A DNA stretch of 64,000 nucleotides from an uncultured Clostridia bacterium (lineage in GTDB: Bacteria > Bacillota > Clostridia > Oscillospirales > Oscillospiraceae). Position numbers and translations under genes: made by a program. Positions 5,927 to 36,413 of this stretch are shown in pieces (position 1 is the first letter of the stretch; each line of letters opens with the position of its first letter). A model generated the notes under the pieces. That model did no database searches, had not been told where the DNA came from, and saw nothing but the letters and a program-made list of their open reading frames with translations. The DNA is taken from the NCBI GenBank assembly GCA_946186375.1, contig CAMHMZ010000009.1:1419-65418 (forward strand). Reading direction: 5' to 3'.

Positions 5927-6757
5927 TTACAAAATGCTTCGAATGACCTGCGCCAGCCCCGCCTCGTTATTCGAGGGGGCGACGAGATCCGCCCCGGCCT
6001 TGACGGCGGGCGAGGCGTTTCCCATCGCCGCGCCGCAGCCGGCCGCGCGCAGCAGAGAGAGGTCGTTCGTGCCGTCGCCGAAGGCGAGTGTCTCACGGAC
6101 GTCCAGCGACAAAAGCGCGCAGAGGCGGCGCAGGGCATCGCCCTTGTTGGCCGCGGCGGCGTTGATCTCGATGTTCGTGGGGACAGAGCTCGTCACCGCG
6201 AGCGCGGGGAAGCGCTCCGGCAGCTCAAGCAGCAGGCGCTGACGCAGCGCCTCGTCCTTCGTGTGCAGCTGCAGCTTCTGCACGCCCGCGCCCTTTTCGG
6301 CCAGAAGCTGCCGCAGCGAGGGCACCGGCGTGCGCACCCGCCGCAGAAGCTCCAGGATGCCGGGGTCGGCGATATAGTCGGCGGCGCTGTCGTAGAAGGC
6401 GCTGTCGATGAAGCCCCACTCGTCCTGATAGCAGTCATAGAGCACCGGAAAGCCGGACAGATAGTCGATGACCTCCAGCGCCAGCGGCGCCGGGATCTCC
6501 TCCCGGCCGACGGCGCGCCCCTCTGCAAAGTCGTACAGGAGCGCTCCGTTGACGAGGATCCCCCAGCGCAGACCGGGCAGGGCCCGCAGCACTTCGGGCA
6601 GGCCAGCGGGGATGCGCCCCGTCGCGGGCACGAGCCAGAGCCCGCGCTCGCCCGCCGCGCGCAGCGCGGAGAGGTTTTCCTCCGGCACGCGCTTGTCATC
6701 GTCCAGGAGCGTCCCGTCCAGGTCGAAGGCGATCAATTTGAAAACGGTCTTTTCCAT
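5927..6757 (-). CDS. Cof-type HAD-IIB family hydrolase
   Basis: N-terminal FDLDGTLL motif and C-terminal GDGTNDLSLL motif. 276 aa. Confidence 0.85.
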   Translation of the reverse strand: MEKTVFKLIAFDLDGTLLDDDKRVPEENLSALRAAGERGLWLVPATGRIPAGLPEVLRALPGLRWGILVNGALLYDFAEGRAVGREEIPAPLALEVIDYLSGFPVLYDCYQDEWGFIDSAFYDSAADYIADPGILELLRRVRTPVPSLRQLLAEKGAGVQKLQLHTKDEALRQRLLLELPERFPALAVTSSVPTNIEINAAAANKGDALRRLCALLSLDVRETLAFGDGTNDLSLLRAAGCGAAMGNASPAVKAGADLVAPSNNEAGLAQVIRSIL

Positions 6758-6794
6758 ATCCGTAAAGCGTGCAAACGCCTGCCTCTGCAGGTGC

Positions 6795-7772
6795 TTACGC
6801 GTTATCCTCCCGCGTTTCTCCCTCCGCCGGCGCGTCGTAGGCGGCGAAAAAGTCGCGGATCACGCCGAAGAGCTCGCGCGTCATGCCGTGAAGGCCGTTG
6901 TCGCGGTTGTAGTAGGCGCAGACTGCGTCGATCCCGGGCAGGTAGGGCAGGGGGAAGACGTAGATGTTTTTCAGATAGTTTTCGCGCATTTCCGGATCCA
7001 GCGCGTCCCAGAAGATCCTCGCGTAGATAAAGACGCCGAGCCCGCTGTTGGCCAGCTGGAAGGCGTTTTCGATGTTTGTCAGCTCGCAGATGAAGCGCGG
7101 GCTGAGGTCGTAATATTTCAGATAGCTGCGCAGCGTGCGCCCGCCCGAGGACTGCCGGGGGATGCGGATGAAGGGTGCGGAGGCGAAGAAGGGCAGCTCG
7201 GCGCTTTTTGAAAAGCGCGAGAGCAGCTCCTCGCGGCGCTCGCCGGCCAGGCTGTCGAAGATCGGCTTCGGCACGACCAGCAGCTGCTCCTTGCGGCACA
7301 GCGGCACGGCCTCGAAGCGCGCCGGGGTGCTGCCGAGCGAGCCGATGGCCAGGTCGACTCCCTCGTAGGAGATCGTCTTCTGGATCTCCTCCGGGGACTC
7401 CTCGCTCAGCTTCAGATAGACCTCCGGGTGCTCGCGCAAAAAGTCCGGCAGGACATGGGGCAGGATGGCCCGGGCCAGCGTATGCTCGATGCCGAGATGC
7501 ACGAACTGCGCGCCGCTGAAGCTGCGGCTGGAGTTTTCGTCGAACTGGCGCTTGAGCCGCAGCATCTGGCGTGCCGTCTGCAGAAACTGCGCCCCGTCCG
7601 GCGTCAGGCTGAGCGGGCGGCTGCGGATCAGCAGCGTGGTCCCCAGCTCCTCCTCCAGCCGGGCGATCTGCTTGGAGAGCGCCTGCTGGCTCATCAGCAG
7701 GTTTTTGGCCGCGGAGGAGAAGCTTTTTTCCTCCGCCACGGCGATGAAGCTGTTCAGGTGAGATAGATCCAT
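6795..7772 (-). CDS. LysR family transcriptional regulator
   Basis: N-terminal wHTH MDLSHLNSFIAVAEEKSFSSAAKNLLMSQQALSKQIARLEEELG. Divergent from the TRAP transporter genes. Confidence 0.9.
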   Translation of the reverse strand: MDLSHLNSFIAVAEEKSFSSAAKNLLMSQQALSKQIARLEEELGTTLLIRSRPLSLTPDGAQFLQTARQMLRLKRQFDENSSRSFSGAQFVHLGIEHTLARAILPHVLPDFLREHPEVYLKLSEESPEEIQKTISYEGVDLAIGSLGSTPARFEAVPLCRKEQLLVVPKPIFDSLAGERREELLSRFSKSAELPFFASAPFIRIPRQSSGGRTLRSYLKYYDLSPRFICELTNIENAFQLANSGLGVFIYARIFWDALDPEMRENYLKNIYVFPLPYLPGIDAVCAYYNRDNGLHGMTRELFGVIRDFFAAYDAPAEGETREDNA

Positions 7773-8047
7773 AACGGGCCTCGGTGATCAGAAAGTGTAA
7801 AAAAACATGAATTTTGTCGAAAAGCGCCTTGCTTTTTGAAGAGAAGATCCGGTTCAGCGGCGGCCTTTGGAGCTTTTCCATAAAAGGATCGCCGATTTGC
7901 CGCGCTAAACCGTCAAAACAGCAAAAATCCGGGGAGCCCCTTGCGCTTATCAACTTTTGGTTGTAGTATAACATCACATTGGGCGTAAATCAAGAGCGTC
8001 CTGTCTTTCCGAAAAAAGAAAAAAGAATGATAATGGAGGTAATCCCC

Positions 8048-25773: not shown

Positions 25774-26754
25774 ATGGCAGACAACAAACGCCCCGAAAGC
25801 ATGGAACGGATCACGACGCCTGAGCTGGCCCAGGCCTTTATCGACGAGCAGCTGGCCGCCCTGCGCGCCCAGATCGGCGATAAGAAGGTGCTGCTGGCCC
25901 TCTCCGGCGGCGTCGACTCCTCTGTCGTCGCGGCCCTGCTGATCAAGGCCGTCGGCAAGCAGCTCACCTGCGTGCACGTCAACCACGGCCTGCTGCGCAA
26001 GGGCGAGCCCGAACAGGTCATCGAGGTCTTCCGCAACCAGATGAACGCCAACCTCATCTATGTCGACGCGGTGGACCGTTTTCTGGACAAGCTCGCGGGC
26101 GTGGCCGAGCCCGAGCAGAAGCGCCACATCATCGGCGCGGAGTTCATCCGTGTCTTTGAGGAAGAGGCCCGCAAGCTCGACGGGATCGAATTCCTCGCCC
26201 AGGGCACCATCTATCCCGACATCCTCGAGAGCGGCCCGGTCAAGGCGCACCACAACGTGGGCGGCCTGCCGGAGGATCTGCAGTTCGAGCTGGTCGAGCC
26301 GCTGAAGTTCCTCTTCAAGGATGAGGTCCGCGTGGTCGGTAAGGCCCTGGGTTTGCCCGACGGCATGGTCTACCGTCAGCCCTTCCCCGGCCCCGGTCTG
26401 GGCGTGCGCTGTGTCGGCGCCATCACCCGCGACCGTCTGGAGGCCGTGCGCGAGAGCGACGCCATTTTGCGTGAGGAGTTTGCCAAAAACGGCCTGGCCG
26501 GCAAGGTCTGGCAGTATTTCACCATCGTGCCCGACTTCAAGTCCACCGGCATCACCAACGGCCTGCGCACCTACGACTGGCCGGTCGTCATCCGTGCCGT
26601 CAACACCGTCGACGCCGTGACCGCCGAGGTCGCGGAGCTGGACTTCAAGCTCGTCGCGCACATCACCGAGCGCATTACCCACGAGGTCAAGGGCGTCAAC
26701 CGCGTCCTCTGGGACGTCACGCCCAAGCCCACCGGCACCATCGAGTGGGAATAA
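25774..26754 (+). CDS. guaA: GMP synthase ATP-pyrophosphatase plus dimerisation domains only (no glutamine amidotransferase domain)
   Basis: ORF 25354..26754 trimmed to ATG 25774 behind GGGAGGA. PP-loop LSGGVDSSV, RQPFPGPGLGVR, C-terminal ..GTIEWE. 326 aa, against the usual roughly 510 aa. Confidence 0.85.
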   Translation: MADNKRPESMERITTPELAQAFIDEQLAALRAQIGDKKVLLALSGGVDSSVVAALLIKAVGKQLTCVHVNHGLLRKGEPEQVIEVFRNQMNANLIYVDAVDRFLDKLAGVAEPEQKRHIIGAEFIRVFEEEARKLDGIEFLAQGTIYPDILESGPVKAHHNVGGLPEDLQFELVEPLKFLFKDEVRVVGKALGLPDGMVYRQPFPGPGLGVRCVGAITRDRLEAVRESDAILREEFAKNGLAGKVWQYFTIVPDFKSTGITNGLRTYDWPVVIRAVNTVDAVTAEVAELDFKLVAHITERITHEVKGVNRVLWDVTPKPTGTIEWE

Positions 26755-26798
26755 GCAAAGTTTGTCTTCGGTTGGCTTGAATCATCTCAAAACATTTG

Positions 26799-26838
26799 AA
26801 ACAGCAGGCATTCTACGGAGTGCCTGCTGTTTACTTTC
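26799..26838 (+). terminator. intrinsic terminator of the guaA-like gene (part of direct repeat copy 1)
   Basis: AACAGCAGGCATTC-TACG-GAGTGCCTGCTGTTTACTTTC. Confidence 0.7.
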
Positions 26839-26903
26839 ATCTGTTATGATAGCGGAATGATAGCAAAACTGGTAAGAACTACAGCAAAACGCCGCTTTTC
26901 CCC

Positions 26904-26931
26904 TTGTGCTTTTGCCTTTTTGTCGTATAAT
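26904..26931 (+). promoter_or_regulatory. promoter of the yhcG-mcrB-mcrC-like cassette (inside direct repeat copy 1)
   Basis: TTGTGC-16-TATAAT, about 30 nt upstream of the ATG at 26964. Confidence 0.5.
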
Positions 26932-26963
26932 AACGGTAATCAAAAGAAGGTGAGGTCTTGCGG

Positions 26964-27992
26964 ATGACAGATCAAATTCGGCCCATCAATCAGGATATCA
27001 AGCTTGTCATTCATGAGATCGGCGATCTGCTGGCCGCTGCCCGGAGCAATGTTGCCCGGCAGGTGAATAACGAGCTGCTGAGCACCTATTGGAATATCGG
27101 GCGTATTATTGCCGAATATGAGCAGACGGTGCCGGAGCGGGCTGACTACGGTAAACAGACGCTCAAGGAGCTGTCAAAGGCGCTGACCGCTGAATTTGGA
27201 AAGGGCTTTTCTGTCTCCAACATTCAGTTCATGCGGCGGTTTTATCAGACCTACCAAATTCAACAGACAGCGTCTGTTAAATTGAGTTGGTCGCATTACT
27301 GCGAACTTCTTTCCATTTCGGACCCGGACAAGCGCAGCTTTTATGAGAAGGAAGCGGTCAATTCCAACTGGTCTGTGCGCGAGCTCAAGCGTCAGATTGA
27401 GAGCTCCCTGTTCGAGCGTCTGCTGCTATCCCGTGGGGATGCAAACAAGGAGCAGGTGCTGGCGCTGGCGGAGAAAGGAATTGAGATCGCTGAACCGTCT
27501 GATCTCATTCGCGACCCGTATGTGTTTGAATTCCTCGGCATCCCGGAGGACAAGCCCATGCTGGAGAGCGACCTGGAACGGGCGCTGGTGCAGCAGATTG
27601 AAAAGTTCCTGCTGGAGCTGGGGCGGGGCTTCATGTTTGTCGGCACACAGCAAAGGGTGACGATCAATAACACCCACTACTATGTGGACATGGTGTTCTA
27701 CAACAAGATCCTCCGCGCCTATGTTCTGATCGAACTGAAGACCACAAAACTGACGCCGGAAGCCGCGGGGCAGATCAATCTATATCTGAATTACTATGCC
27801 TCTGAGGTCAACGATCCGGATGACAATCCTCCGATCGGGATCATCCTGTGCACCGAGAAGGACAGCATCACGGCGGAGTACGCTTTGGGCGGTCTGTCAA
27901 ACAACGTCTTTGCCTCGCGTTATGTGCTGGTTATGCCCAACAAGGAACAGTTGATCGCCCAGGTAGAAGCGGTTTTGAAGAAGCGGAAATGA
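26964..27992 (+). CDS. YhcG-like PDDEXK nuclease (DUF1016 family)
   Basis: ATG 26964 behind AGGTGAGG. N-terminal DUF1016-type helical region (..STYWNIGRIIAEYEQ..). C-terminal nuclease core YVDMVFYN..YVLIELKTTKL. Low GC. Confidence 0.75.
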   Translation: MTDQIRPINQDIKLVIHEIGDLLAAARSNVARQVNNELLSTYWNIGRIIAEYEQTVPERADYGKQTLKELSKALTAEFGKGFSVSNIQFMRRFYQTYQIQQTASVKLSWSHYCELLSISDPDKRSFYEKEAVNSNWSVRELKRQIESSLFERLLLSRGDANKEQVLALAEKGIEIAEPSDLIRDPYVFEFLGIPEDKPMLESDLERALVQQIEKFLLELGRGFMFVGTQQRVTINNTHYYVDMVFYNKILRAYVLIELKTTKLTPEAAGQINLYLNYYASEVNDPDDNPPIGIILCTEKDSITAEYALGGLSNNVFASRYVLVMPNKEQLIAQVEAVLKKRK

Positions 27993-28013
27993 AACAGGAA
28001 AGAGGGAATACAG

Positions 28014-29339
28014 ATGCTGAAAACAGATATCCGTCTCAATACAATTCTCTACGGTCCTCCGGGAACGGGAAAGACTTACAACACTGTTAATTACGCAGTC
28101 GCAATTTGTGAGGGGAAAACCCTCGAAGAAGTTGAAGGTGAGGATTATTCGGACGTTTTTATGCGCTATATTGACTTTAAGAAAAAGGGCAGAATTGTCT
28201 TTACCACATTTCATCAATCCTATGGGTATGAAGAATTTATTGAGGGAATTAAACCCATCACTGATAAGAGCGGCAATATCTCATATGAAATAAAGAACGG
28301 CGTCTTCAGGGATTTCTGTAAAAATGCAGAGAAATTGCTTCAAACCAGCGGCCAGTCGATATTTGACGATATATGGAAAAAGCTTGTAGCTGCTGCCAAA
28401 GAAAATGACGGTAAATATCTTTTCAAACGGAGAACTGGTACAACAATACAGGCCAAATACATTGAGCCAGACAGGTTCAGGGTAGAGTGGAATGGTAATA
28501 CCAATACTCATAATGACTTGACAAAGTCGGCAATTATAAATCAGTGGATGAATCCAAATCCAAAACGTGAGCAGCTAACAGGCGGGGCCCGGTGGTTATT
28601 TGATGCAAGACGGGCAGTGTTGGACGAAATGAAAGAATACGGCTTGCCGACGTTCCAGACGGAAGATGCCTGTGTTTTTATTATTGATGAAATCAATAGA
28701 GGAAATATTTCTAAGATTTTCGGTGAATTGATTACATTGATAGAGGAAGAAAAGCGGGAAGGAAGCGTAGAAGAACTGACGGCAGTGCTTCCGTATTCCA
28801 AAACTGAATTTTCAGTTCCAAGGAATGTCTACATTCTTGGGACAATGAATACTGCTGATCGGTCTATTGCAATTATGGATACAGCTCTCCGCAGAAGATT
28901 TGACTTCGTTGAGATACAGCCTGATCCCGATGTTCTGAGCGGAGTCAAAATTGTTGCGGATGGGATTGAACTGGATGTTGCCAAAATGCTAAAAACCATC
29001 AATTCAAGAATTGAAGTTCTGTATGACAGAGATCATACTATCGGACATGCCTTTTTCATGCCTCTCAGGCAAGACAATTCTATTGATGCATTAGGGTCTG
29101 TTTTCCGTAAGAAAGTGATACCGCTTCTTCAAGAGTATTTTTATGAGGACTACGGAAAAATACAGATGATTCTGGGAGATAATGATAAATCTGATAATAA
29201 GATCAAATTCATAGTAGAAGAGCGTATAGACGGAAGCGTTTTTAGGGGAAAAGTTGATATAAGTGACTTCCCTCCACGGTATTGGATAAACGAGGAGGCG
29301 TTTAACAGCATCGAAAGTTATCAACAGATTATCGGGTAA
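28014..29339 (+). CDS. McrB-like AAA+ (GTPase-type) restriction subunit, atypical architecture
   Basis: Walker A GPPGTGKT at aa 14-21, FHQSYGYEEFIEGIKP, Walker B VFIIDEINRGN at aa 221-231, GTMNTADRSIAIMDTALRRRF. Starts 21 nt after the yhcG-like stop. Confidence 0.85.
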   Translation: MLKTDIRLNTILYGPPGTGKTYNTVNYAVAICEGKTLEEVEGEDYSDVFMRYIDFKKKGRIVFTTFHQSYGYEEFIEGIKPITDKSGNISYEIKNGVFRDFCKNAEKLLQTSGQSIFDDIWKKLVAAAKENDGKYLFKRRTGTTIQAKYIEPDRFRVEWNGNTNTHNDLTKSAIINQWMNPNPKREQLTGGARWLFDARRAVLDEMKEYGLPTFQTEDACVFIIDEINRGNISKIFGELITLIEEEKREGSVEELTAVLPYSKTEFSVPRNVYILGTMNTADRSIAIMDTALRRRFDFVEIQPDPDVLSGVKIVADGIELDVAKMLKTINSRIEVLYDRDHTIGHAFFMPLRQDNSIDALGSVFRKKVIPLLQEYFYEDYGKIQMILGDNDKSDNKIKFIVEERIDGSVFRGKVDISDFPPRYWINEEAFNSIESYQQIIG

Positions 29340-29345
29340 GAGAGC

Positions 29346-30671
29346 ATGGCCAGGAAAACGCTTACAATTCAGGAATACGAAACGATCACTTCCAACGTCC
29401 GCTTTGAAAAGGAGGAGGGCTATCGATATCTTGATCAGGAACACCTTCAGAAACTGGAACAGTTTATCCTCGAATATTCTGAAACTGAGGGTGATACTGA
29501 CGTTCTACAGTTTCTAAAGCCGGGGTTCCATCGGAATGTGGGAAAAGTAATATCTGTCAGCAACTATGTTGGAGTGGTACAGCTCCAGGACGGGCTCTCT
29601 GTTGAAATTCTGCCCAAGGTTCTTATGGGTGAGGATGACAACGCGTATTCCCAAACAAAGCAGGTTTTTTTGCGTATGTTAAAGCACATGCGTGAATATG
29701 ATGGCCGGACTCTGAACTTTGCCAATTTAAAAACAAGCAACACAGATTTGTATGAAATCTTTATCAGTATGTTTGTCAGGGAAGCAAGAGAGCTTGCAAA
29801 GAGAGGGTTAAAATCAGCCTATCTTGAAGAGGAAGATAATTTGTCCTTCTTCAAAGGGAAACTTTCAGTCAACGAGCATATCAAGAAAAACCTGGCACAT
29901 AATGAACGCTTTTATGTTCGTTATGATGAATACAAAGTAAATCGTCCGGAAAACAGGCTGATTAAAGCAACATTGCTTAAACTGCTGTCTTTGAGTGGCA
30001 CGTTCGAGATGCAGAAAGAAATACGGCAAGTTCTCGCAATGTATGACATGGTGGAGCCTTCGCACCATTATCAACGAGATTTTGCACAAGTTTCAATTGA
30101 TAGAAGCACCAGACAATATGAACTGCTAATAGATTGGGCAAAGGTGTTTCTGTTTAATAAAAGCTTTTCAACATTTACTGGCACTACTACAGCAAGAGCG
30201 CTGTTGTTTCCAATGGAGAAAGTGTTTGAGGCATATGTTGCTAAAGAAATGAAAAAACATCTTACACCGGAAGGCTGTATAGTTAGTGTTCAGGAGCAAA
30301 GCTACTGGCTTTTTGACGAGCCTACAAAAAAGTTTGCCCTTCGCCCGGATATTGTAGTGACAATGGAGAATGGGCGAAAGATCATCATGGATACCAAATG
30401 GAAGCGGCTGTCACCTGACAAGAACAATTATGGAATCTCACAAGCTGATTTGTATCAGATGTATGCTTATGCTAAGAAGTATGGAACTGACAATGATACG
30501 CCGGCCGTTTGGCTTTTGTATCCATTAAGCCCAGTAACTGTAAACCTCCAGAATACTGTTTTGAAAAGCAATGATGGTGTGACTGTGCATGTGTTTTTTG
30601 TGGACTGTTCTGAATTAAAAAACGGCTTCCGAATTGTTGACCTCTGTAATAGTATTCGAGAGAACCGTTAG
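29346..30671 (+). CDS. McrC-like nuclease subunit
   Basis: Starts 6 nt after the McrB-like stop. N-terminal ..NYVGVVQLQDGLSVEILPKV.. block. C-terminal PD-(D/E)xK-like RPDIVV....IMDTKWKRL. Confidence 0.7.
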   Translation: MARKTLTIQEYETITSNVRFEKEEGYRYLDQEHLQKLEQFILEYSETEGDTDVLQFLKPGFHRNVGKVISVSNYVGVVQLQDGLSVEILPKVLMGEDDNAYSQTKQVFLRMLKHMREYDGRTLNFANLKTSNTDLYEIFISMFVREARELAKRGLKSAYLEEEDNLSFFKGKLSVNEHIKKNLAHNERFYVRYDEYKVNRPENRLIKATLLKLLSLSGTFEMQKEIRQVLAMYDMVEPSHHYQRDFAQVSIDRSTRQYELLIDWAKVFLFNKSFSTFTGTTTARALLFPMEKVFEAYVAKEMKKHLTPEGCIVSVQEQSYWLFDEPTKKFALRPDIVVTMENGRKIIMDTKWKRLSPDKNNYGISQADLYQMYAYAKKYGTDNDTPAVWLLYPLSPVTVNLQNTVLKSNDGVTVHVFFVDCSELKNGFRIVDLCNSIRENR

Positions 30672-31063
30672 AATACGGCCAATTCTGTCTTCAATATGGT
30701 CTTTGCTGTGAGAAAGCTCGATAAAATCCATAACGCCGAGCTAGGCAGGCACATGCAGCCAATCGCTACGGTAGAACTATTCAACTTCAACGGTGTCGGT
30801 GTTCGATCACATTCGGTATATTTACCTCTTTATCGACCAGACCAATGCGAACTGCTTCAACAACTCACACCTGTGATAGCGTCGTTGATAGCTTTTTGAT
30901 AGCAAAAGTCCGTAGACCCCATGGGTTGAGGATAATGGGAATCAAACGGAGTCACGTCGAGACAAATCCCCTAAACAAAAGCAGTTAAAACCGGGATTTA
31001 CTTGGCGAGTGGGAATAAATCCACATTTGGATTCGCTTGGTTCAGATTCTCTCAAAGCACTTG

Positions 31064-31103
31064 AAACAGCAGGCATTCTACGGAGTGCCTGCTGTTTACT
31101 TTC
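31064..31103 (+). terminator. duplicate of the guaA-like terminator (direct repeat copy 2)
   Basis: Sequence identical to 26799..26838. Confidence 0.6.
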
Positions 31104-31168
31104 ATCTGTTATGATAGCAGGATGATAGCAAAACTGGTAAGAACTATAGTAAAACACCGCTTATTCCC

Positions 31169-31196
31169 TTGTGTTTTTGGCGTTTTATCGTATAAT
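31169..31196 (+). promoter_or_regulatory. duplicated promoter (direct repeat copy 2) with no ORF immediately downstream
   Basis: TTGTGT-16-TATAAT, followed by two terminator hairpins before the sigma-factor gene. Confidence 0.45.
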
Positions 31197-31279
31197 AATA
31201 CAGCGTGGTCTGATAAGATCAATCGTGCTTGTCCCGAGGCCCGTCTCTCTGTTTTCAGGGGGACGGGCTTTTCCTTATA

Positions 31280-31311
31280 CCTTGTCTCACCGTGAGACAA
31301 GGTTTCTTTTT
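31280..31311 (+). terminator. strong intrinsic terminator about 85 nt downstream of an orphan promoter
   Basis: CCTTGTCTCA-CCG-TGAGACAAGG then TTTCTTTTT. Preceded by a second hairpin GCCCGTC..GACGGGC plus TTTT at 31239..31272. Confidence 0.7.
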
Positions 31312-31431
31312 ATGCGCCTGTTGTCTCTTCCCGACCTTTCTTGTGCTCTCAAAGTAAAAATGATAAAATTTTGCAAACCAATGAGATATTTACCCTCCAA
31401 ATCCCTACTTATAGGGTGAGGCGGAAAGGAA

Positions 31432-31998
31432 GTGACGCATTTGGAAGACAGCGAAATCATATCCCTGTTCTATGAGCGCTCGGAACAGGCCATTGCGGAA
31501 CTGGAACGGAAATACGGCGCTGCCGTAAGGAAAACGGCGGCTAATATTCTGTGCAGTAAGCAGGATGTAGAAGAATGTGCAAACGACACCTATTTGGGCG
31601 TTTGGAACTCAATTCCGCCTCAGAAGCCAAACTCCCTGATCGCTTATGTTTGTAAAATTGCCCGCAACCTTGCGACCTGGAAATACCACAGCAACACGGC
31701 GAGCAAGCGCAATGGACAGTATGATCTTGTGCTGGATGAGCTGGAAGAGTGCATACCGTCCTCGGTCAACATAGAAACGGATTACGAGGAAAAAGAGCTT
31801 TCAGCCGCGATCATCCGTTTCCTGGATACGCTCAGCTATGAAGATCGTTTTTGTTTTCTCCGCCGGTATTGGTATGCGGACTCTGTTTCGGATATAGCCG
31901 CCATGACGCACAGCAGCAGCCACCGTATCTCCGTCCGTCTTTTCCGTGCTCGTGAAAGACTTCACCGCTATTTGATAAAGGAGGGTTTGCTCGAATGA
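31432..31998 (+). CDS. ECF-type sigma-70 family RNA polymerase sigma factor
   Basis: GTG start. Region 2 (..DVEECANDTYLGVWNSIP..) and region 4 (..SVSDIAAMTHSSSHRISVRLFRARERL..). ATGA overlap with the next gene. Confidence 0.85.
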   Translation: MTHLEDSEIISLFYERSEQAIAELERKYGAAVRKTAANILCSKQDVEECANDTYLGVWNSIPPQKPNSLIAYVCKIARNLATWKYHSNTASKRNGQYDLVLDELEECIPSSVNIETDYEEKELSAAIIRFLDTLSYEDRFCFLRRYWYADSVSDIAAMTHSSSHRISVRLFRARERLHRYLIKEGLLE

Positions 31999-32870
31999 GA
32001 CGGGAACAGTTATCGCGTGTTCTCTGTAACCTCGATGAACGGCAAATTGCCGAGGCGTATCAGTTCAATCCCGATCTTTGCGGGCGCTCCCCGGAAAGGA
32101 TCGTACACATGAAAAAGAAAAGAATCATTACCTTTGCATTGGCAGCGGCACTTATCTTTTCTCTGGGTATCGCAGCATACGCCACAGGCTTTGTGTCTGC
32201 CATTACAGAACTGGCAAGGAGTTTTTATAAGCCTGTTCCCGATGAAGAAATGAGAAATGAACGTCCGGAAGCTGCTGAATATCATGAAAATTGGAACAGT
32301 CAAATGGATGAATGGATCGAGATCGGTGAAAACTCTGATAAGACAACTCAAAGCGCTGAACTTGAAAATGGAACAGCAATTACACTGACCGAAAACTTTT
32401 ATGATGGCGAAAGACTTGCGCTATCCTACGTGCTTAACAGAGAAAAACCGACTGTTGACTACAGCTTCGGCCCCGATCACGAATACTTTGAGCGCCTGTC
32501 GGAGAGCGAGGGCCTCTGCTGGTATCAGGATTTATCAGAGACGCAGTATCTGGAGATCATGGCAAAGCTGAAGCTGACGGGTAAAGTCGGATTTGTCATT
32601 CGCACCGCGGATGTTGGTGATCATGTTACCCTTGCGGACGGAACCGATATCGGCCCATTTGTCGGCGGAGAGCTTGACGGATACACCGTTCTCGTTCCTC
32701 AAAACGGACTGCCGGATTCGGCAAAAGGGCAGGACAAGCTGGATGTTGTATTTCACGTCAAGACTTATGAGGCATATATCTGGCTTGAAGGCGATAAGGT
32801 CTATTCCTATTATCCGATCGTTGAGGGCATACCTGTCACATTCGAGATAATCAACAACACCGCGGCTTAA
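31995..32870 (+). CDS. putative anti-sigma factor / single-pass membrane protein
   Basis: Translationally coupled to the sigma gene. Short cytoplasmic N-terminus, one TM helix (IITFALAAALIFSLGIAAYA) and an extracytoplasmic domain. Family not recognised with certainty. Confidence 0.6.
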   Translation: MRREQLSRVLCNLDERQIAEAYQFNPDLCGRSPERIVHMKKKRIITFALAAALIFSLGIAAYATGFVSAITELARSFYKPVPDEEMRNERPEAAEYHENWNSQMDEWIEIGENSDKTTQSAELENGTAITLTENFYDGERLALSYVLNREKPTVDYSFGPDHEYFERLSESEGLCWYQDLSETQYLEIMAKLKLTGKVGFVIRTADVGDHVTLADGTDIGPFVGGELDGYTVLVPQNGLPDSAKGQDKLDVVFHVKTYEAYIWLEGDKVYSYYPIVEGIPVTFEIINNTAA

Positions 32871-33091
32871 TTCTGACCGCCAGGATCAATGCCGCGCCCC
32901 TTTCCGGTCCCGCCGCTCACTCGGAGCGGCGGGACTGGCCCGGGGCAGGCTGAGCCTCTGCGTTCGGGATCGCCGAACAGATCCGCTTCAACATCGACGG
33001 CGACAAGGACATGCTCTTCAACCGCAAGGGCGGCAAGTGCATCGCGCTCGGCTCGCCGAAATTCTGATACTCTGCGCAGACAAGCTGAATA

Positions 33092-33130
33092 GGCCCGGCG
33101 AATTCCCCGTGAACTCGCCGGGCTTTTTTC
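33092..33130 (+). terminator. intrinsic terminator after a truncated gene relic
   Basis: GGCCCGGCGA..TCGCCGGGC then TTTTTT. The stem sequence resembles module H2 of the repeat family. Confidence 0.6.
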
Positions 33131-33170
33131 GATCTCCGAGGCAGATCTTTTCAAAAAACCGCGTCGCCTC

Positions 33171-33221
33171 TTGCTTTTTTCGATTAGGTTTGGTACTATT
33201 ATTTTGGTTTACCATAACCAA
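33171..33221 (+). promoter_or_regulatory. promoter of the surface-protein gene plus downstream palindrome
   Basis: TTGCTT-17-TACTAT, then the inverted repeat TTGGTT-TACCAT-AACCAA at 33204..33221. Confidence 0.45.
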
Positions 33222-33263
33222 TGATCCTATTTCGTCTTTTGACGGAAAACAGGAGGAGATCTT

Positions 33264-36200
33264 ATGACAGGGAAAAAGCTTTTCGCCCTGCTGCTGGCGC
33301 TGCTGCTGTGCCTCAGTCTGGTTCCTCTCAGCGCGCTCGCGGAGGGCGAGGTGTACACCGTGACCCTGGACCCCGGCGAGGGAACGGGCGAGCCCGTCAG
33401 CTACCGCTCCGACGAGGGCACGATCGCGGACGATTGGCGCAGCTCCGGCAATTTACAGTTCTTTTACGAAGAAGACGGGGGCCTGGGCTTCCATCTGGGC
33501 AATAACTACTGCCCGGACGGCTTCACCGCCCCGGCGGGACAGGTGTTCAACGGCTGGAGCCCGACGAGCGGCGTAATCAAGCTGGGCAGAACGGAAACCA
33601 CCTTCACCGCCCAGTGGAGAGACGCGGGCTCCGCCGCCATCAGCTTCAGCCCCGACTCCATCACGCTGAGCGCAAATGATTTTGACGCAAACGGCTACGC
33701 AGCACTGAGCTTCGACCTGACGATCGATTTCGGCCCGAACGCAACGTCTGACGCTAATGTTTCAGTTTCGTTTGACGGTGGCGTAGTCTTCAAGGGCAGC
33801 TCACGGATCGCCTGGAAGGTCTCCCAGGCGGATGAGGACACGCAGTCAGATTCGATTAATCAACAGTTCTTTGCCGATTCGGGTTATCGATCCTTCCCCT
33901 TCAAGCTGTATATCGACCCCGCCGCTCTCGCCGCCGCGGAGCCGGGAAGCTATACGGCAACGCCGAATTGTTATCTGTCATGGGATTTTATCGGCGGCAG
34001 CCCCGCCCCCGGGGACGTAGAAATCCCCCTGACGCTGGTGGTGCCGGAGCCCAGTTACCCCATCACGCTGACCTACGACAATGACGGCGGCGCGGTCGGC
34101 GTGGATAAGGAAGAGGCCGCAGCGGGCGAAACGGTCGCCGTCAAGGTCGATCCCTACGACGGTTATACGCTGGGCTCCGTCGCCGTGACCGACGCGGACG
34201 GCAGCCCCGTGACCGTCACGCTCACCGATGCGGACAACGGGATCTATACCTTTGTCATGCCCGCCTCGGCGGCGACCGTGGCCGTGGATTTCCAGGTGAT
34301 CACGGTAGACGCGGTGGTGGACTTCGGCACGGGCCACGAGACCTTCGTCCAGAACCACTTCGGCGGGACCTACGCGGTGGACGGCGCCCGCATCACCGTC
34401 CCCATCCCAAGAGGGGAGAGCCACACGGTGCTGCTCGCCTGGGAAACCCTGGAGGGCAAGCTGCTGGAGCTTCTCTGGGACAACCCCCTCGACAACGGCG
34501 AGAGGCTCTATCAGTATCTGGGCCGCAAGAGCATGGTCGCATACGGCAGCGAGGATGCGCTGAGCGAGGACAAGCGCCTCGCCCGCGACGAGGCCTTTGT
34601 GCCCGGCACCGTGTTCACCGCGCTGTGGGAGCAGCCCGTGCGCAACGCCACCATCACGGTCACCCCGCCCGCCTGCGGCACCGAGGTGCATTATGAGTAT
34701 AAGACCGGCATCTACGTCTGGGCCGTCCCACAGCCGCAGCTCAGCGTCAGCAGCCCCTGCACCTTCCAGGATTATCAGCTCTTCTACAACAGCTGGAGTC
34801 TGAGTGACGAAGAGCACCATTATGGGGTCGGCGACTCCGTCGTCATGACCGGCGGCAACTCCTATACTGCCTACGGCTACCTGGACGCCGGCTTCGGCTA
34901 TCGCATCGATCCGAAGCTCCTCACGGTGGAGGTCGTCGGCGGGACGCTGCTGAGCTTCGGCAACGACTGGACCCGCTTTGAGATCTCCGTGCCCGTGGAG
35001 CATGATATCCCCGACGACGCGGTGCGCGTGGAGCCCACCTGCGCCGAGGAAGGCACGCTGTCCTACCACTGCGACGGCTGCGGCCAGGACGTGGTCGATC
35101 CCATCGAGGCCCTGGGCCACGACTGGGGCGCTCCGACCTACACCTGGGCTGACGACAACAGCACGGTAACTGCCACGCGGGTCTGCTCTCGCGATACGGT
35201 GAATCATGTGGAGACCGAGACGGTGAATGCCGTCGGCGAGGTCACCAAGGCCGCGACCTGCGAGGAGAAGGGCGAGACCACTTATACGGCGACCTTCGAG
35301 AACGAAGCCTTTTCCGCCCAGACCAAGACCGTTGAGGATGTCAAGGCCCTGGGCCACGACTGGGGCGAGTGGACCGAGACGAAAGCCCCCACGGAGACCG
35401 AGGAGGGCGAGGAGACACGTGTCTGCGCCCATGATCCGAGTCACGTGGAGACCCGCGCGATCGCCAAGCTGGAGCCCGCGGCCACGCCGACGCCCACGCC
35501 TACGGCTACCCCGGCTCCCACGGCCACGCCCAAGCCCACGGCCACGCCCGCGCCTACGGCCACGCCCGCGCCTACGGCCACGCCCGCGCCTACGGCCACG
35601 CCCGCACCCACGGCCACGCCCGCACCCACGCCGGAGCCCTCGCCCGAACCCACGCCCGTGCCCACGCCGGAGCCCTCGCCCGAACCCACGCCCGAACCCA
35701 CGCCCGAACCCACGCCCGTGCCCACTCCGGAACCCACGCCCGTACCCACGCCCGTGCCCACGCCCGTGCCCACGCCCGAACCGGAGATCTATACGGTCAC
35801 CGTGAAGGACGACGGGCACGGCACGGCTGAGGCGACCCCGGCCTCCGGCCCCAGCGGCACGAAGGTCGCCCTTACGGCCGAGCCCGACGAGGGCTACAGC
35901 TTCAAGGACTGGGAGGTCGTCTCCGGCGGCGTGACAGTGAAGAATGACAGCTTCACCATCGGTGACGAGGACGTTGAGCTCCTGGCGCTCTTCGAGGCGG
36001 ATTACCGCGTCGTCAGCGGCGCCAACGGCAGCTGGACCAAAAACAGCGGCAAGGACTACACGCTCACTGTCAAGCGCGATGTGGACGACGAGAGCTGCTT
36101 TGCGCACTTTGTCGGCGTCGAGCTCGACGGAGCCGCCCTCTCCGCCGCGGACTACACGGCGAAGGCGGGCAGCACGGTCGTGACGCTCAAGGCCGCCGCG

Positions 36201-36413
36201 CTGCAGAAGCTCTCGGTCGGCGACCATCACGTGACCGTCCTCTTCGACGACGGCGAGGTCGGAACACGGCTGACCGTCAAGAGCGCCTCCGGCGCCCCGA
36301 CCACCGGCGACGATGTGCCGATCTTCGCATATCTCGCGCTGACGTCGCTCTCCGCCGCCGCGCTCCTGCTGCTCGGCAAAAAGCGCAGAAAACAGCTTTC
36401 CTCCGACCGCTGA
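33264..36413 (+). CDS. large cell-wall-anchored surface protein (Listeria-Bacteroides-type repeats, ALGHDWG modules, Pro/Thr linker, xPxTG sorting signal)
   Basis: AGGAGGAG RBS. Signal peptide ..[19 protein letters not shown]...FNGW repeats. Two ..ALGHDWG.. modules. About 100-aa PT linker. C-terminal APTTGD, hydrophobic helix, then KKRRK. Confidence 0.8.
35476..35785 (+). repeat. in-frame tandem DNA repeats encoding the Pro/Thr linker of the surface protein
   Basis: Successive near-identical 18-bp units CACGCCCGCGCCTACGGC (ATPAPT), followed by 12- and 36-bp units (PEPT/PVPT). Confidence 0.85.

Follow-up and report, generated by a model that had tools for sequence, protein, structure and literature searches.

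An integrase-less islet at guaA that carries yhcG and a reader-less mcrBC pair: probably two separate defence modules in one chimeric operon

The stretch of DNA analysed here, 64,000 nucleotides from an uncultured Clostridia bacterium and called the window below, carries downstream of guaA three consecutive genes on the plus strand. They are yhcG, coding for a predicted nuclease of the DUF1016 family, and mcrB and mcrC, coding for the AAA+ GTPase and the nuclease of a McrBC-type (Type IV) restriction system. The original prediction, made from the letters of the sequence, proposed that they form a three-component variant of McrBC. Instead, we favor the view, with a probability of about 0.7, that the genes are two independently viable defence modules in a chimeric operon on an islet at guaA that has no integrase. 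One module would be yhcG under its own promoter, a gene that recurs in the backbone of an element family and in related chromosomes. The other would be the low-G+C mcrBC pair, gained from elsewhere and put directly after yhcG by recombination.

Two modules and the joint between them

The three open reading frames (ORFs) are intact (Table 1) and separated by 21 nt (yhcG-mcrB) and 6 nt (mcrB-mcrC). Thus the co-directional arrangement, the spacing and the operon-like packing were as originally described. The translations also contain the motifs named at that time, i.e. YVDMVFYN..LIELK in YhcG, GPPGTGKT, FHQSYGYEEF, VFIIDEINRGN, MNTADRS and ALRRRF in McrB and RPDIVV..IMDTKWK in McrC, and Pfam matches to YhcG_C, DUF1016_N, AAA_5 and McrBC upheld the family assignments.

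Table 1. Features of the yhcG-mcrBC islet and its boundaries (positions in the window)
Feature	Positions	Strand	Description
left core	26742..26754	+	CGAGTGGGAATAA; last 13 nt of guaA including the stop codon; att-like left boundary
left arm	26755..26963	+	guaA-yhcG intergenic copy with terminator-like hairpin (26799-26832), yhcG promoter and ribosome-binding site
yhcG	26964..27992	+	DUF1016_N and YhcG_C, PD-(D/E)xK nuclease domain
recombination joint	27984..28013	+	...AAGCGGAAA joined to TGAAACAGGAAAGAGGGAATACAG; holds the mcrB ribosome-binding site
mcrB	28014..29339	+	441-residue McrB-type AAA+ GTPase, no N-terminal reader
mcrC	29346..30671	+	441 residues, Pfam McrBC model, intact PD...D-x-K motif (RPDIVV...IMDTKWK)
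mcrBC module tail	30672..30850	+	non-coding, or start of a 67-residue ORF (30696-30899)
right arm	30851..31018	+	TGATAGC-type repeats; second core copy (31006-31018) mimics the guaA end
second copy of guaA-downstream sequence	31019..31198	+	87% identical; hairpin 31064-31097

YhcG matched the Pfam models YhcG_C (6.6e-58, 195.4 bits, gathering cut-off 32.5) and DUF1016_N (2.4e-47, 160.9 bits, cut-off 32.8). The nuclease motif D...ExK is intact, with the aspartate in YVDMVF followed by ELK, and by this motif YhcG is a predicted nuclease. It has the same two-domain match and the same intact motif as the YhcG/DUF1016/COG4804 family and the PADLOC candidate PDC-S02. An in-frame TTG is located at 26958, upstream of the ATG at 26964, yet the ATG is the likely start because close relatives begin with MTDRIQP or MADHILP. 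A search of the PDB by sequence yielded no solved structure for YhcG.

McrC matched the Pfam McrBC model over residues 71-393 (1.8e-92, 310 bits, cut-off 23.9), while the match to the NCBIfam equivalog of E. coli McrC was partial and below cut-off (3.2e-33). Alignment with McrC of T. gammatolerans (6UT5_G, 5e-17) brought the catalytic motifs into register, RPDIVV...IMDTKWK corresponding to KPDYVV...VLDAKYR. In McrB, Walker A (GPPGTGKT, residues 14-21), the Walker B DE (225-226) and the NxxD motif (NTAD, 279-282) were invariant in an alignment of 40 sequences. Pfam AAA_5 matched with 5.4e-16. The NCBIfam equivalog of E. coli McrB matched the C-terminal part only, with 1.4e-38 and 132.8 bits against a cut-off of 637. 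A phmmer search of the PDB found T. gammatolerans McrB (6UT3, 3e-57; 6HZ4, 1e-37), and a predicted model of the protein (predicted local distance difference test, pLDDT, 86) matched 6UT5 in Foldseek with E 2e-24 and probability 1.0. By these sequence matches the protein is classed as a member of the McrB family, but not as an E. coli-type equivalog. Like the McrBC systems of E. coli K-12 and T. gammatolerans (6UT5/6UT6/6HZ4), the pair has mcrB in front of mcrC. It shares with them the Walker A, Walker B and NxxD motifs of the AAA+ GTPase and, in McrC, the region of the Pfam McrBC model and the PD-D-x-K nuclease, and it matches the solved structures in sequence and fold. It differs in that McrB lacks the N-terminal reader and has an extra insert of about 110-120 residues.

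The composition of the two modules is discordant. The G+C content (GC) is about 0.65 in the host DNA, 0.53 in yhcG, 0.40 in mcrB and 0.41 in mcrC, dropping at the yhcG-mcrBC joint, in agreement with the low-GC island of the original prediction. At third codon positions (GC3) the values are 0.87-0.89, 0.69, 0.40 and 0.43, respectively, and the difference between 0.69 and 0.40-0.43 indicates that yhcG and mcrBC differ in origin.

The boundary between the modules was located by blastn. A yhcG DNA module, shared with other loci at about 90% identity, spans 26900-28002 and ends between the yhcG stop codon and the mcrB ATG. Homology to stand-alone yhcG loci stops at 28001/28002, 12 nt upstream of that ATG. 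Stand-alone yhcG genes extend for six further codons (...KRKENxxES*) and have a G+C-rich hairpin behind them. In contrast, the copies with mcrBC (window, L002 and L102; L-numbers denote retrieved genome or metagenome loci or contigs, P-numbers McrB relative proteins) have a common truncated YhcG end, ...KKRK*, without the terminator hairpin. Thus mcrBC appears to have been spliced behind a pre-existing yhcG gene. Because the joint deleted the last six codons of yhcG together with its terminator, the genes became an operon in which mcrBC would be read from the yhcG promoter.

A candidate for this promoter, read from the sequence, has a perfect -10 box (TATAAT, 26926-26931), a weak -35 box (TTGTGC, 26904-26909) and a 16-nt spacer. 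The region is kept upstream of yhcG in L002, L093, L095 and L101. A hairpin scan found no terminator between the three genes, and the hairpin at 31064-31097 is the likely terminator of the operon. A single promoter for yhcG, mcrB and mcrC is therefore plausible, and one transcript would run from it to the hairpin.

With respect to function, yhcG presumably is a defence or exclusion gene of the nuclease type, whose product needs no partner to cut nucleic acid. McrB would form a GTP-driven AAA+ ring that activates cutting by the PD-D-x-K site of McrC, as in E. coli and T. gammatolerans. The roles of yhcG and mcrBC are presumably directed against phages.

Neighbourhoods of YhcG and McrB relatives

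If the three genes formed a conserved system, relatives of McrB should have a DUF1016 gene beside them, and a survey of this kind had been proposed with the original prediction. We therefore examined 80 loci from genomes that have a relative of McrB (39-66% identity), with flanks of up to 8 kb. No DUF1016 gene was present at any of the 80, neither by phmmer with the YhcG of the window nor with a hidden Markov model built from 82 diverse DUF1016 proteins. A recurrent partner in the ORF directly upstream of mcrB was not seen either, the commonest Pfam family occurring three times in the 80 loci. Conversely, neither McrB nor McrC was present at any of 80 loci from metagenomes with a relative of YhcG (78-95% identity), of which 75 had at least 500 nt and 55 at least 1500 nt downstream. 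The lack of DUF1016 beside related McrBC pairs is the outcome that had been named as refuting the original prediction, and its central claim, a conserved three-component YhcG-McrB-McrC variant, is thus not supported by these neighbourhoods. PADLOC did not bear it out either. It assigned YhcG to PDC-S02, a single-gene defence candidate for DUF1016, with 34 models matching, nearly all PDC-S02 (best PDLC04807, 4.3e-137, residues 9-339). McrB gave weak REase_II matches only, and McrC had no match. Among the papers retrieved, none reported an experimental test of PDC-S02 for protection against phage.

The genes downstream of yhcG were heterogeneous among the relatives, and near-identical yhcG stands alone, with its own terminator in each case, in at least three other contexts. 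In L101 it follows guaA, in the same amylase-guaA-yhcG synteny as in the window. In L095-L100 the element around it also codes for a tyrosine integrase and a NikA-like protein, a relaxase (Mob_Pre), TnpV, a methylase of the Dam type and BlaI/BlaR. In L093 and L094 it is located beside a Fic gene. Close relatives of YhcG at 94-100% identity form more than 120 clusters, many on long contigs, and more than 118 stand-alone clusters are 94-97% identical to the protein of the window. Of the 120 closest clusters (at least 94% identity), 118 retain the native C-terminus and hence are without the mcrBC junction. In comparison to these 118 stand-alone relatives no trio-specific substitution was found in YhcG. 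The only differences are the six C-terminal residues and the terminator lost at the joint. McrBC in turn exists in a minimal form without an upstream partner (L103, L184).

Among more distant YhcG relatives (L158-L183, about 79% identity) some 25 loci had an ORF of 142 or 152 residues 8-29 nt downstream of yhcG. No recurring Pfam family was found among the downstream ORFs of these loci.

DUF1016 genes are known to adjoin, or to sit inside, Type I restriction-modification and Type IIG restriction loci, and the family is enriched adjacent to inversion-targeted genes with an odds ratio of 17.4 (PMC9881135). The arrangement in the window shares with those loci the immediate adjacency to a restriction system on the same strand. 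It differs in that the partner is a Type IV McrBC and that loss of a terminator has made one operon. Thus DUF1016 beside a Type IV system is one more case of a known pattern, while the operon fusion of YhcG and McrBC is confined to one element lineage. A full-text literature search for DUF1016 together with McrB returned two PD-(D/E)xK classification papers only, and by this search the McrBC census (eLife 2024, PMC11090510) does not mention DUF1016.

McrB without an N-terminal reader and the competing explanations

The Walker A motif of McrB starts at residue 14, so the protein has no N-terminal domain; on this point the original prediction was right. Relatives mostly carry N-terminal extensions of about 85 to 930 residues, and about 15% have none. 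A tblastn search of the whole window for a relic of a reader, with five N-terminal regions taken from long relatives and the separate reader of L011 described below as queries, found nothing significant. In a collection of 5.8 billion proteins McrB had just two close relatives (99% and 88% identity), the next being 61% identical. The nearest mcrBC relatives are annotated as Lachnospiraceae or other Clostridia. The best relative from a genome (61% identity) is a protein of 744 residues with an N-terminal extension, located in a Lachnospiraceae metagenome-assembled genome (MAG; L013). There, 13 nt upstream of the McrB gene, a separate protein of 290 residues with an SRA domain, which flips 5-methylcytosine, is encoded at 6195-7064.

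Within the GTPase domain, between Walker A and Walker B, McrB has the insert mentioned above, at about residues 97-215. It was modelled as two long helices bearing a small beta-barrel of four to five strands, and it is conserved in relatives both with and without N-terminal domains. When predicted alone (pLDDT 87) and compared with the PDB, its best match had an E of 0.03, and SH3, Hfq and Tudor-like barrels followed at E 0.25-1, none being significant. Because McrB lacks the N-terminal reader, contact with DNA would have to be made via the insert, via McrC or by non-specific loading. The conserved insert is the obvious candidate for DNA engagement, although such a role is a guess that starts from the model. 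According to the McrBC census, insertions in McrB GTPase domains are frequent and were proposed as likely specificity domains (PMC11090510). The McrB of the window differs from that clade of insert-bearing proteins in having just the small helix and beta-barrel insert, which occurs also in relatives that do have N-terminal readers. In some relatives an EVE-like insert is present instead of it or on top of it.

This other insert, of about 160-175 residues, was seen in many relatives, among them P0060, P0081, P0092, P0099, P0102, P0116 and P0119. It is labelled PF28530 in the precomputed Pfam annotation, and its sequence pattern looks EVE/PUA-like by eye. P0003, P0007 and P0008 carry both the EVE-like and the window-type insert. 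These inserts mean that in this clade a reader can sit inside the motor domain.

Five minimal McrBs were examined together with their neighbourhoods: those of the window, of the partner-less loci L103 and L184, and of L011 and L185. In the latter two a separate reader ORF lies directly upstream of the minimal mcrB. In L011 (7249-7953) it is 55% identical to residues 158-296 of P0041, and in L185 (341-1039) it matches residues 1-192 of P0052, P0030 and P0019. By these alignments both loci read as natural split versions of long McrBs. YhcG had no detectable homology to the N-terminal domains or readers of related McrBs.

Short McrBs of archaea (MAGs of Thermoplasmatales and Methanomethylophilaceae) also have an ORF 2-12 nt upstream, in L072, L078, L083 and L086. 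In the first three (7127-7984, 677-1534 and 6034-6882, respectively) it codes for about 285 residues, begins with MRIIGSSKIDDYKK and appears AbrB/SpoVT-like by eye. The L072 copy had no significant Pfam match. In L086 an ORF of 244 residues (413-1144) occupies the same position. The archaeal ORF may be a lineage-specific partner of McrB.

The trio is not a chance arrangement seen once, because a second lineage (L102) has the same joint, with McrB 88% and DNA 89% identical. Between the lineages mcrB and yhcG both have a synonymous divergence (dS) of 0.45 and mcrC one of 0.58, the comparison for yhcG and mcrC covering the part of the gene that was available. The ratio of nonsynonymous to synonymous divergence (dN/dS) is 0.125, 0.04 and 0.10, respectively. 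All three genes are under purifying selection, and pseudogenisation of McrBC was rejected on these values.

Several of these observations weigh against two separable modules. The split readers of L011 and L185 occupy the very position that YhcG has here. An McrB that lacks both an N-terminal and an EVE-like reader should not be able to sense DNA, and since this one is under purifying selection, something must supply recognition. Furthermore, a joint present in two lineages about 11% apart, with similar dS, means that the linkage is old relative to the divergence and could be selected. All this would fit a true three-component system in which YhcG is the missing sensor for DNA or modified bases, or a second nuclease for McrBC, as would the loss of the yhcG terminator in the operon fusion and the enrichment of DUF1016 beside restriction systems (PMC9881135). 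Yet the reciprocal surveys gave 0/80 each, and no DUF1016-McrB fusion occurs among the best 150 of the 26,479 representative clusters of the DUF1016 family, all of which have at most 478 residues. The trio YhcG, with its very low dN/dS, is indistinguishable from 118 stand-alone relatives and unrelated to the N-terminal domains of the McrBs; minimal McrBC pairs do without a partner; and the modules differ in composition. The three genes are co-inherited, but linkage on a 4-kb element predicts this anyway. We therefore regard a three-component system as unlikely. In the same way it is doubtful that the reader-less McrBC depends on YhcG for recognition or a second cut, or is guarded by it, with YhcG as a back-up triggered by a block of McrBC. 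If it were true, the very large, uncharacterised DUF1016 family would gain its first defined role, that of a helper to restriction systems, and its known enrichment next to Type I and Type IIG loci would be easier to understand.

The missing reader could also mean that McrBC is a decapitated remnant whose reader was cut off by the capture, and which is now drifting or acts as a modulator. E. coli has a precedent in McrB-S, a form from an internal start that is made alongside full-length McrB, does not bind DNA and serves as a modulator. Both McrB-S and the McrB of the window consist of the GTPase module only, without a DNA-binding domain. The 13 residues in front of Walker A, when most relatives are extended, the position of the joint just upstream of the mcrB ATG and the lack of any reader relic in the window point in this direction. 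However, the low dN/dS of mcrB and mcrC over a dS of about 0.45 since the joint rules out simple decay. The catalytic motifs are all intact, intact mcrBC copies are present on at least 13 contigs from different samples, and about 15% of the relatives are likewise without an N-terminal domain. Unlike McrB-S, the short McrB is the sole product, kept by purifying selection, with no full-length form or reader in the window. Taken together a decapitated remnant is very improbable, the least probable of the explanations considered. Slightly less improbable, but still only a slim chance, is that YhcG serves the maintenance or transfer of a mobile element, by DNA processing or by exclusion of competitors, leaving McrBC as the sole defence cargo. 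yhcG is located just inside the left end, with a conserved promoter, in several element contexts and with variable cargo downstream, and in gut bacteria COG4804 is, alongside conjugation genes, one of the genes most frequently exchanged by horizontal transfer (PMC10782964). On the other hand, yhcG occurs also in plain chromosomal contexts with housekeeping neighbours (e.g. L101), and its huge family is known from within restriction loci (PMC9881135) and has a place among the defence candidates of PADLOC. The data constrain this explanation weakly.

Thus we favor two independently viable modules and read the joint as a capture of mcrBC at, or beside, the boundary with its reader, after which McrBC function was kept. 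As two known modules were stitched into one operon, the tight spacing and the shared promoter are no evidence for a multi-component system. As found, the significance is small, namely two known defence modules on a small mobile islet. Nevertheless, an McrB kept by selection without an N-terminal or EVE-like reader implies that the small insert or some partner suffices for target engagement. Moreover, the association of DUF1016 with restriction systems is known statistically and functionally unexplored. With the trio and the yhcG-only state at the same locus, this lineage offers a compact natural construct for the question of their cooperation.

The guaA islet and its surroundings

The operon is part of an islet of 4.26 kb (26755-31018) between two 13-bp att-like cores at the 3' end of guaA. 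Within the window the core sequence has two exact copies, at 26742 and 31006, and no others. An imperfect direct repeat of about 190 bp, which starts with the core and holds the guaA terminator-like hairpin and the promoter with the perfect TATAAT, brackets the cassette, the left arm being 87% identical to 31026-31198. The second copy of the guaA-downstream sequence (31019-31198) shares 83% identity with the guaA-yhcG spacer of L101, and its promoter copy is directed towards the sigma-factor gene described below. No integrase is encoded between the repeats, only the three genes and the 67-residue ORF, which had no Pfam match. The mcrBC tail is present in all contigs with mcrBC and absent from yhcG-only loci.

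The islet recurs elsewhere. The unit 26796-31018 was found at 96-98% identity in other assemblies with differing flanks (e.g. MOSC and KAP NTPase genes). In L002 it is 96% identical, in a different genomic context, with the same core on the right and a variant with two mismatches on the left. Upstream of this left core lies an apparent right arm of another element. The core, or a variant with one or two mismatches, was seen at the ends of the same unit or of related elements in L001-L004 and L095-L099. Most contigs with 99%-identical mcrBC (L001, L003-L010) end inside or just upstream of yhcG, which is expected if yhcG is present in many near-identical copies at which assemblies break, and which fits its wide spread.

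The right arm of the islet (30851-31018) shares 90% identity with the right ends of L095-L099, elements that bear an integrase, and its sequence is found also upstream of yhcG in L093. In L099 (10500-11221) an element with Mob_Pre relaxase, TnpV, Dam-type methylase, yhcG and BlaI/BlaR is directly followed by the core variant CGAGTGGGAGTGA. The sequence beyond this core, which includes a second yhcG copy, is identical to the left flank of the islet in L002 (L002 1-360). The integrase gene of its relatives L095, L096 and L100 lies beyond the end of the L099 contig. This order indicates that an autonomous element and the islet without integrase have accreted in tandem. The picture is that of a family of integrative elements targeting the 3' end of guaA, to which the islet would belong, and the integrase of a related element would mobilise it in trans. 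The left arm itself duplicates the chromosomal spacer between guaA and yhcG, which suggests a capture through imprecise excision or through recombination. We also considered L101 as a clean pre-insertion site but rejected it, since it differs downstream; it shows the yhcG-only state.

Integrase-less cis-mobilisable islets that accrete with integrative mobilisable elements at the 3' end of a housekeeping gene have the same kind of direct repeats including the last codons of the target gene, here guaA, the same sharing of the right arm with elements that have a tyrosine integrase and relaxase, and, as seen here in another genome, a tandem arrangement with such an element. The guaA islet differs from them in its left arm being a copy of a chromosomal spacer.

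To the right of the islet the window has a stretch of lowered GC (31199-33200, 0.47-0.50). It codes for a sigma factor of the extracytoplasmic function type (31432-31998; Sigma70_r2, r4_2) and an anti-sigma-like DUF4179 protein (31995-32870), and may be further cargo at the same guaA hotspot. The pair sits behind the duplicated promoter and a terminator-like hairpin (31279-31303) in its leader. A search of 26000-34000 against Rfam at E up to 0.1 found no structured RNA in the repeats or in this leader. The following gene (33264-36413) codes for a secreted surface protein of 1049 residues with a long linker rich in Pro and Thr (repeats TPAPTATP and EPTPEPTP) and a membrane anchor at the C-terminus; its GC is like that of the host, and it has no relation to the trio.

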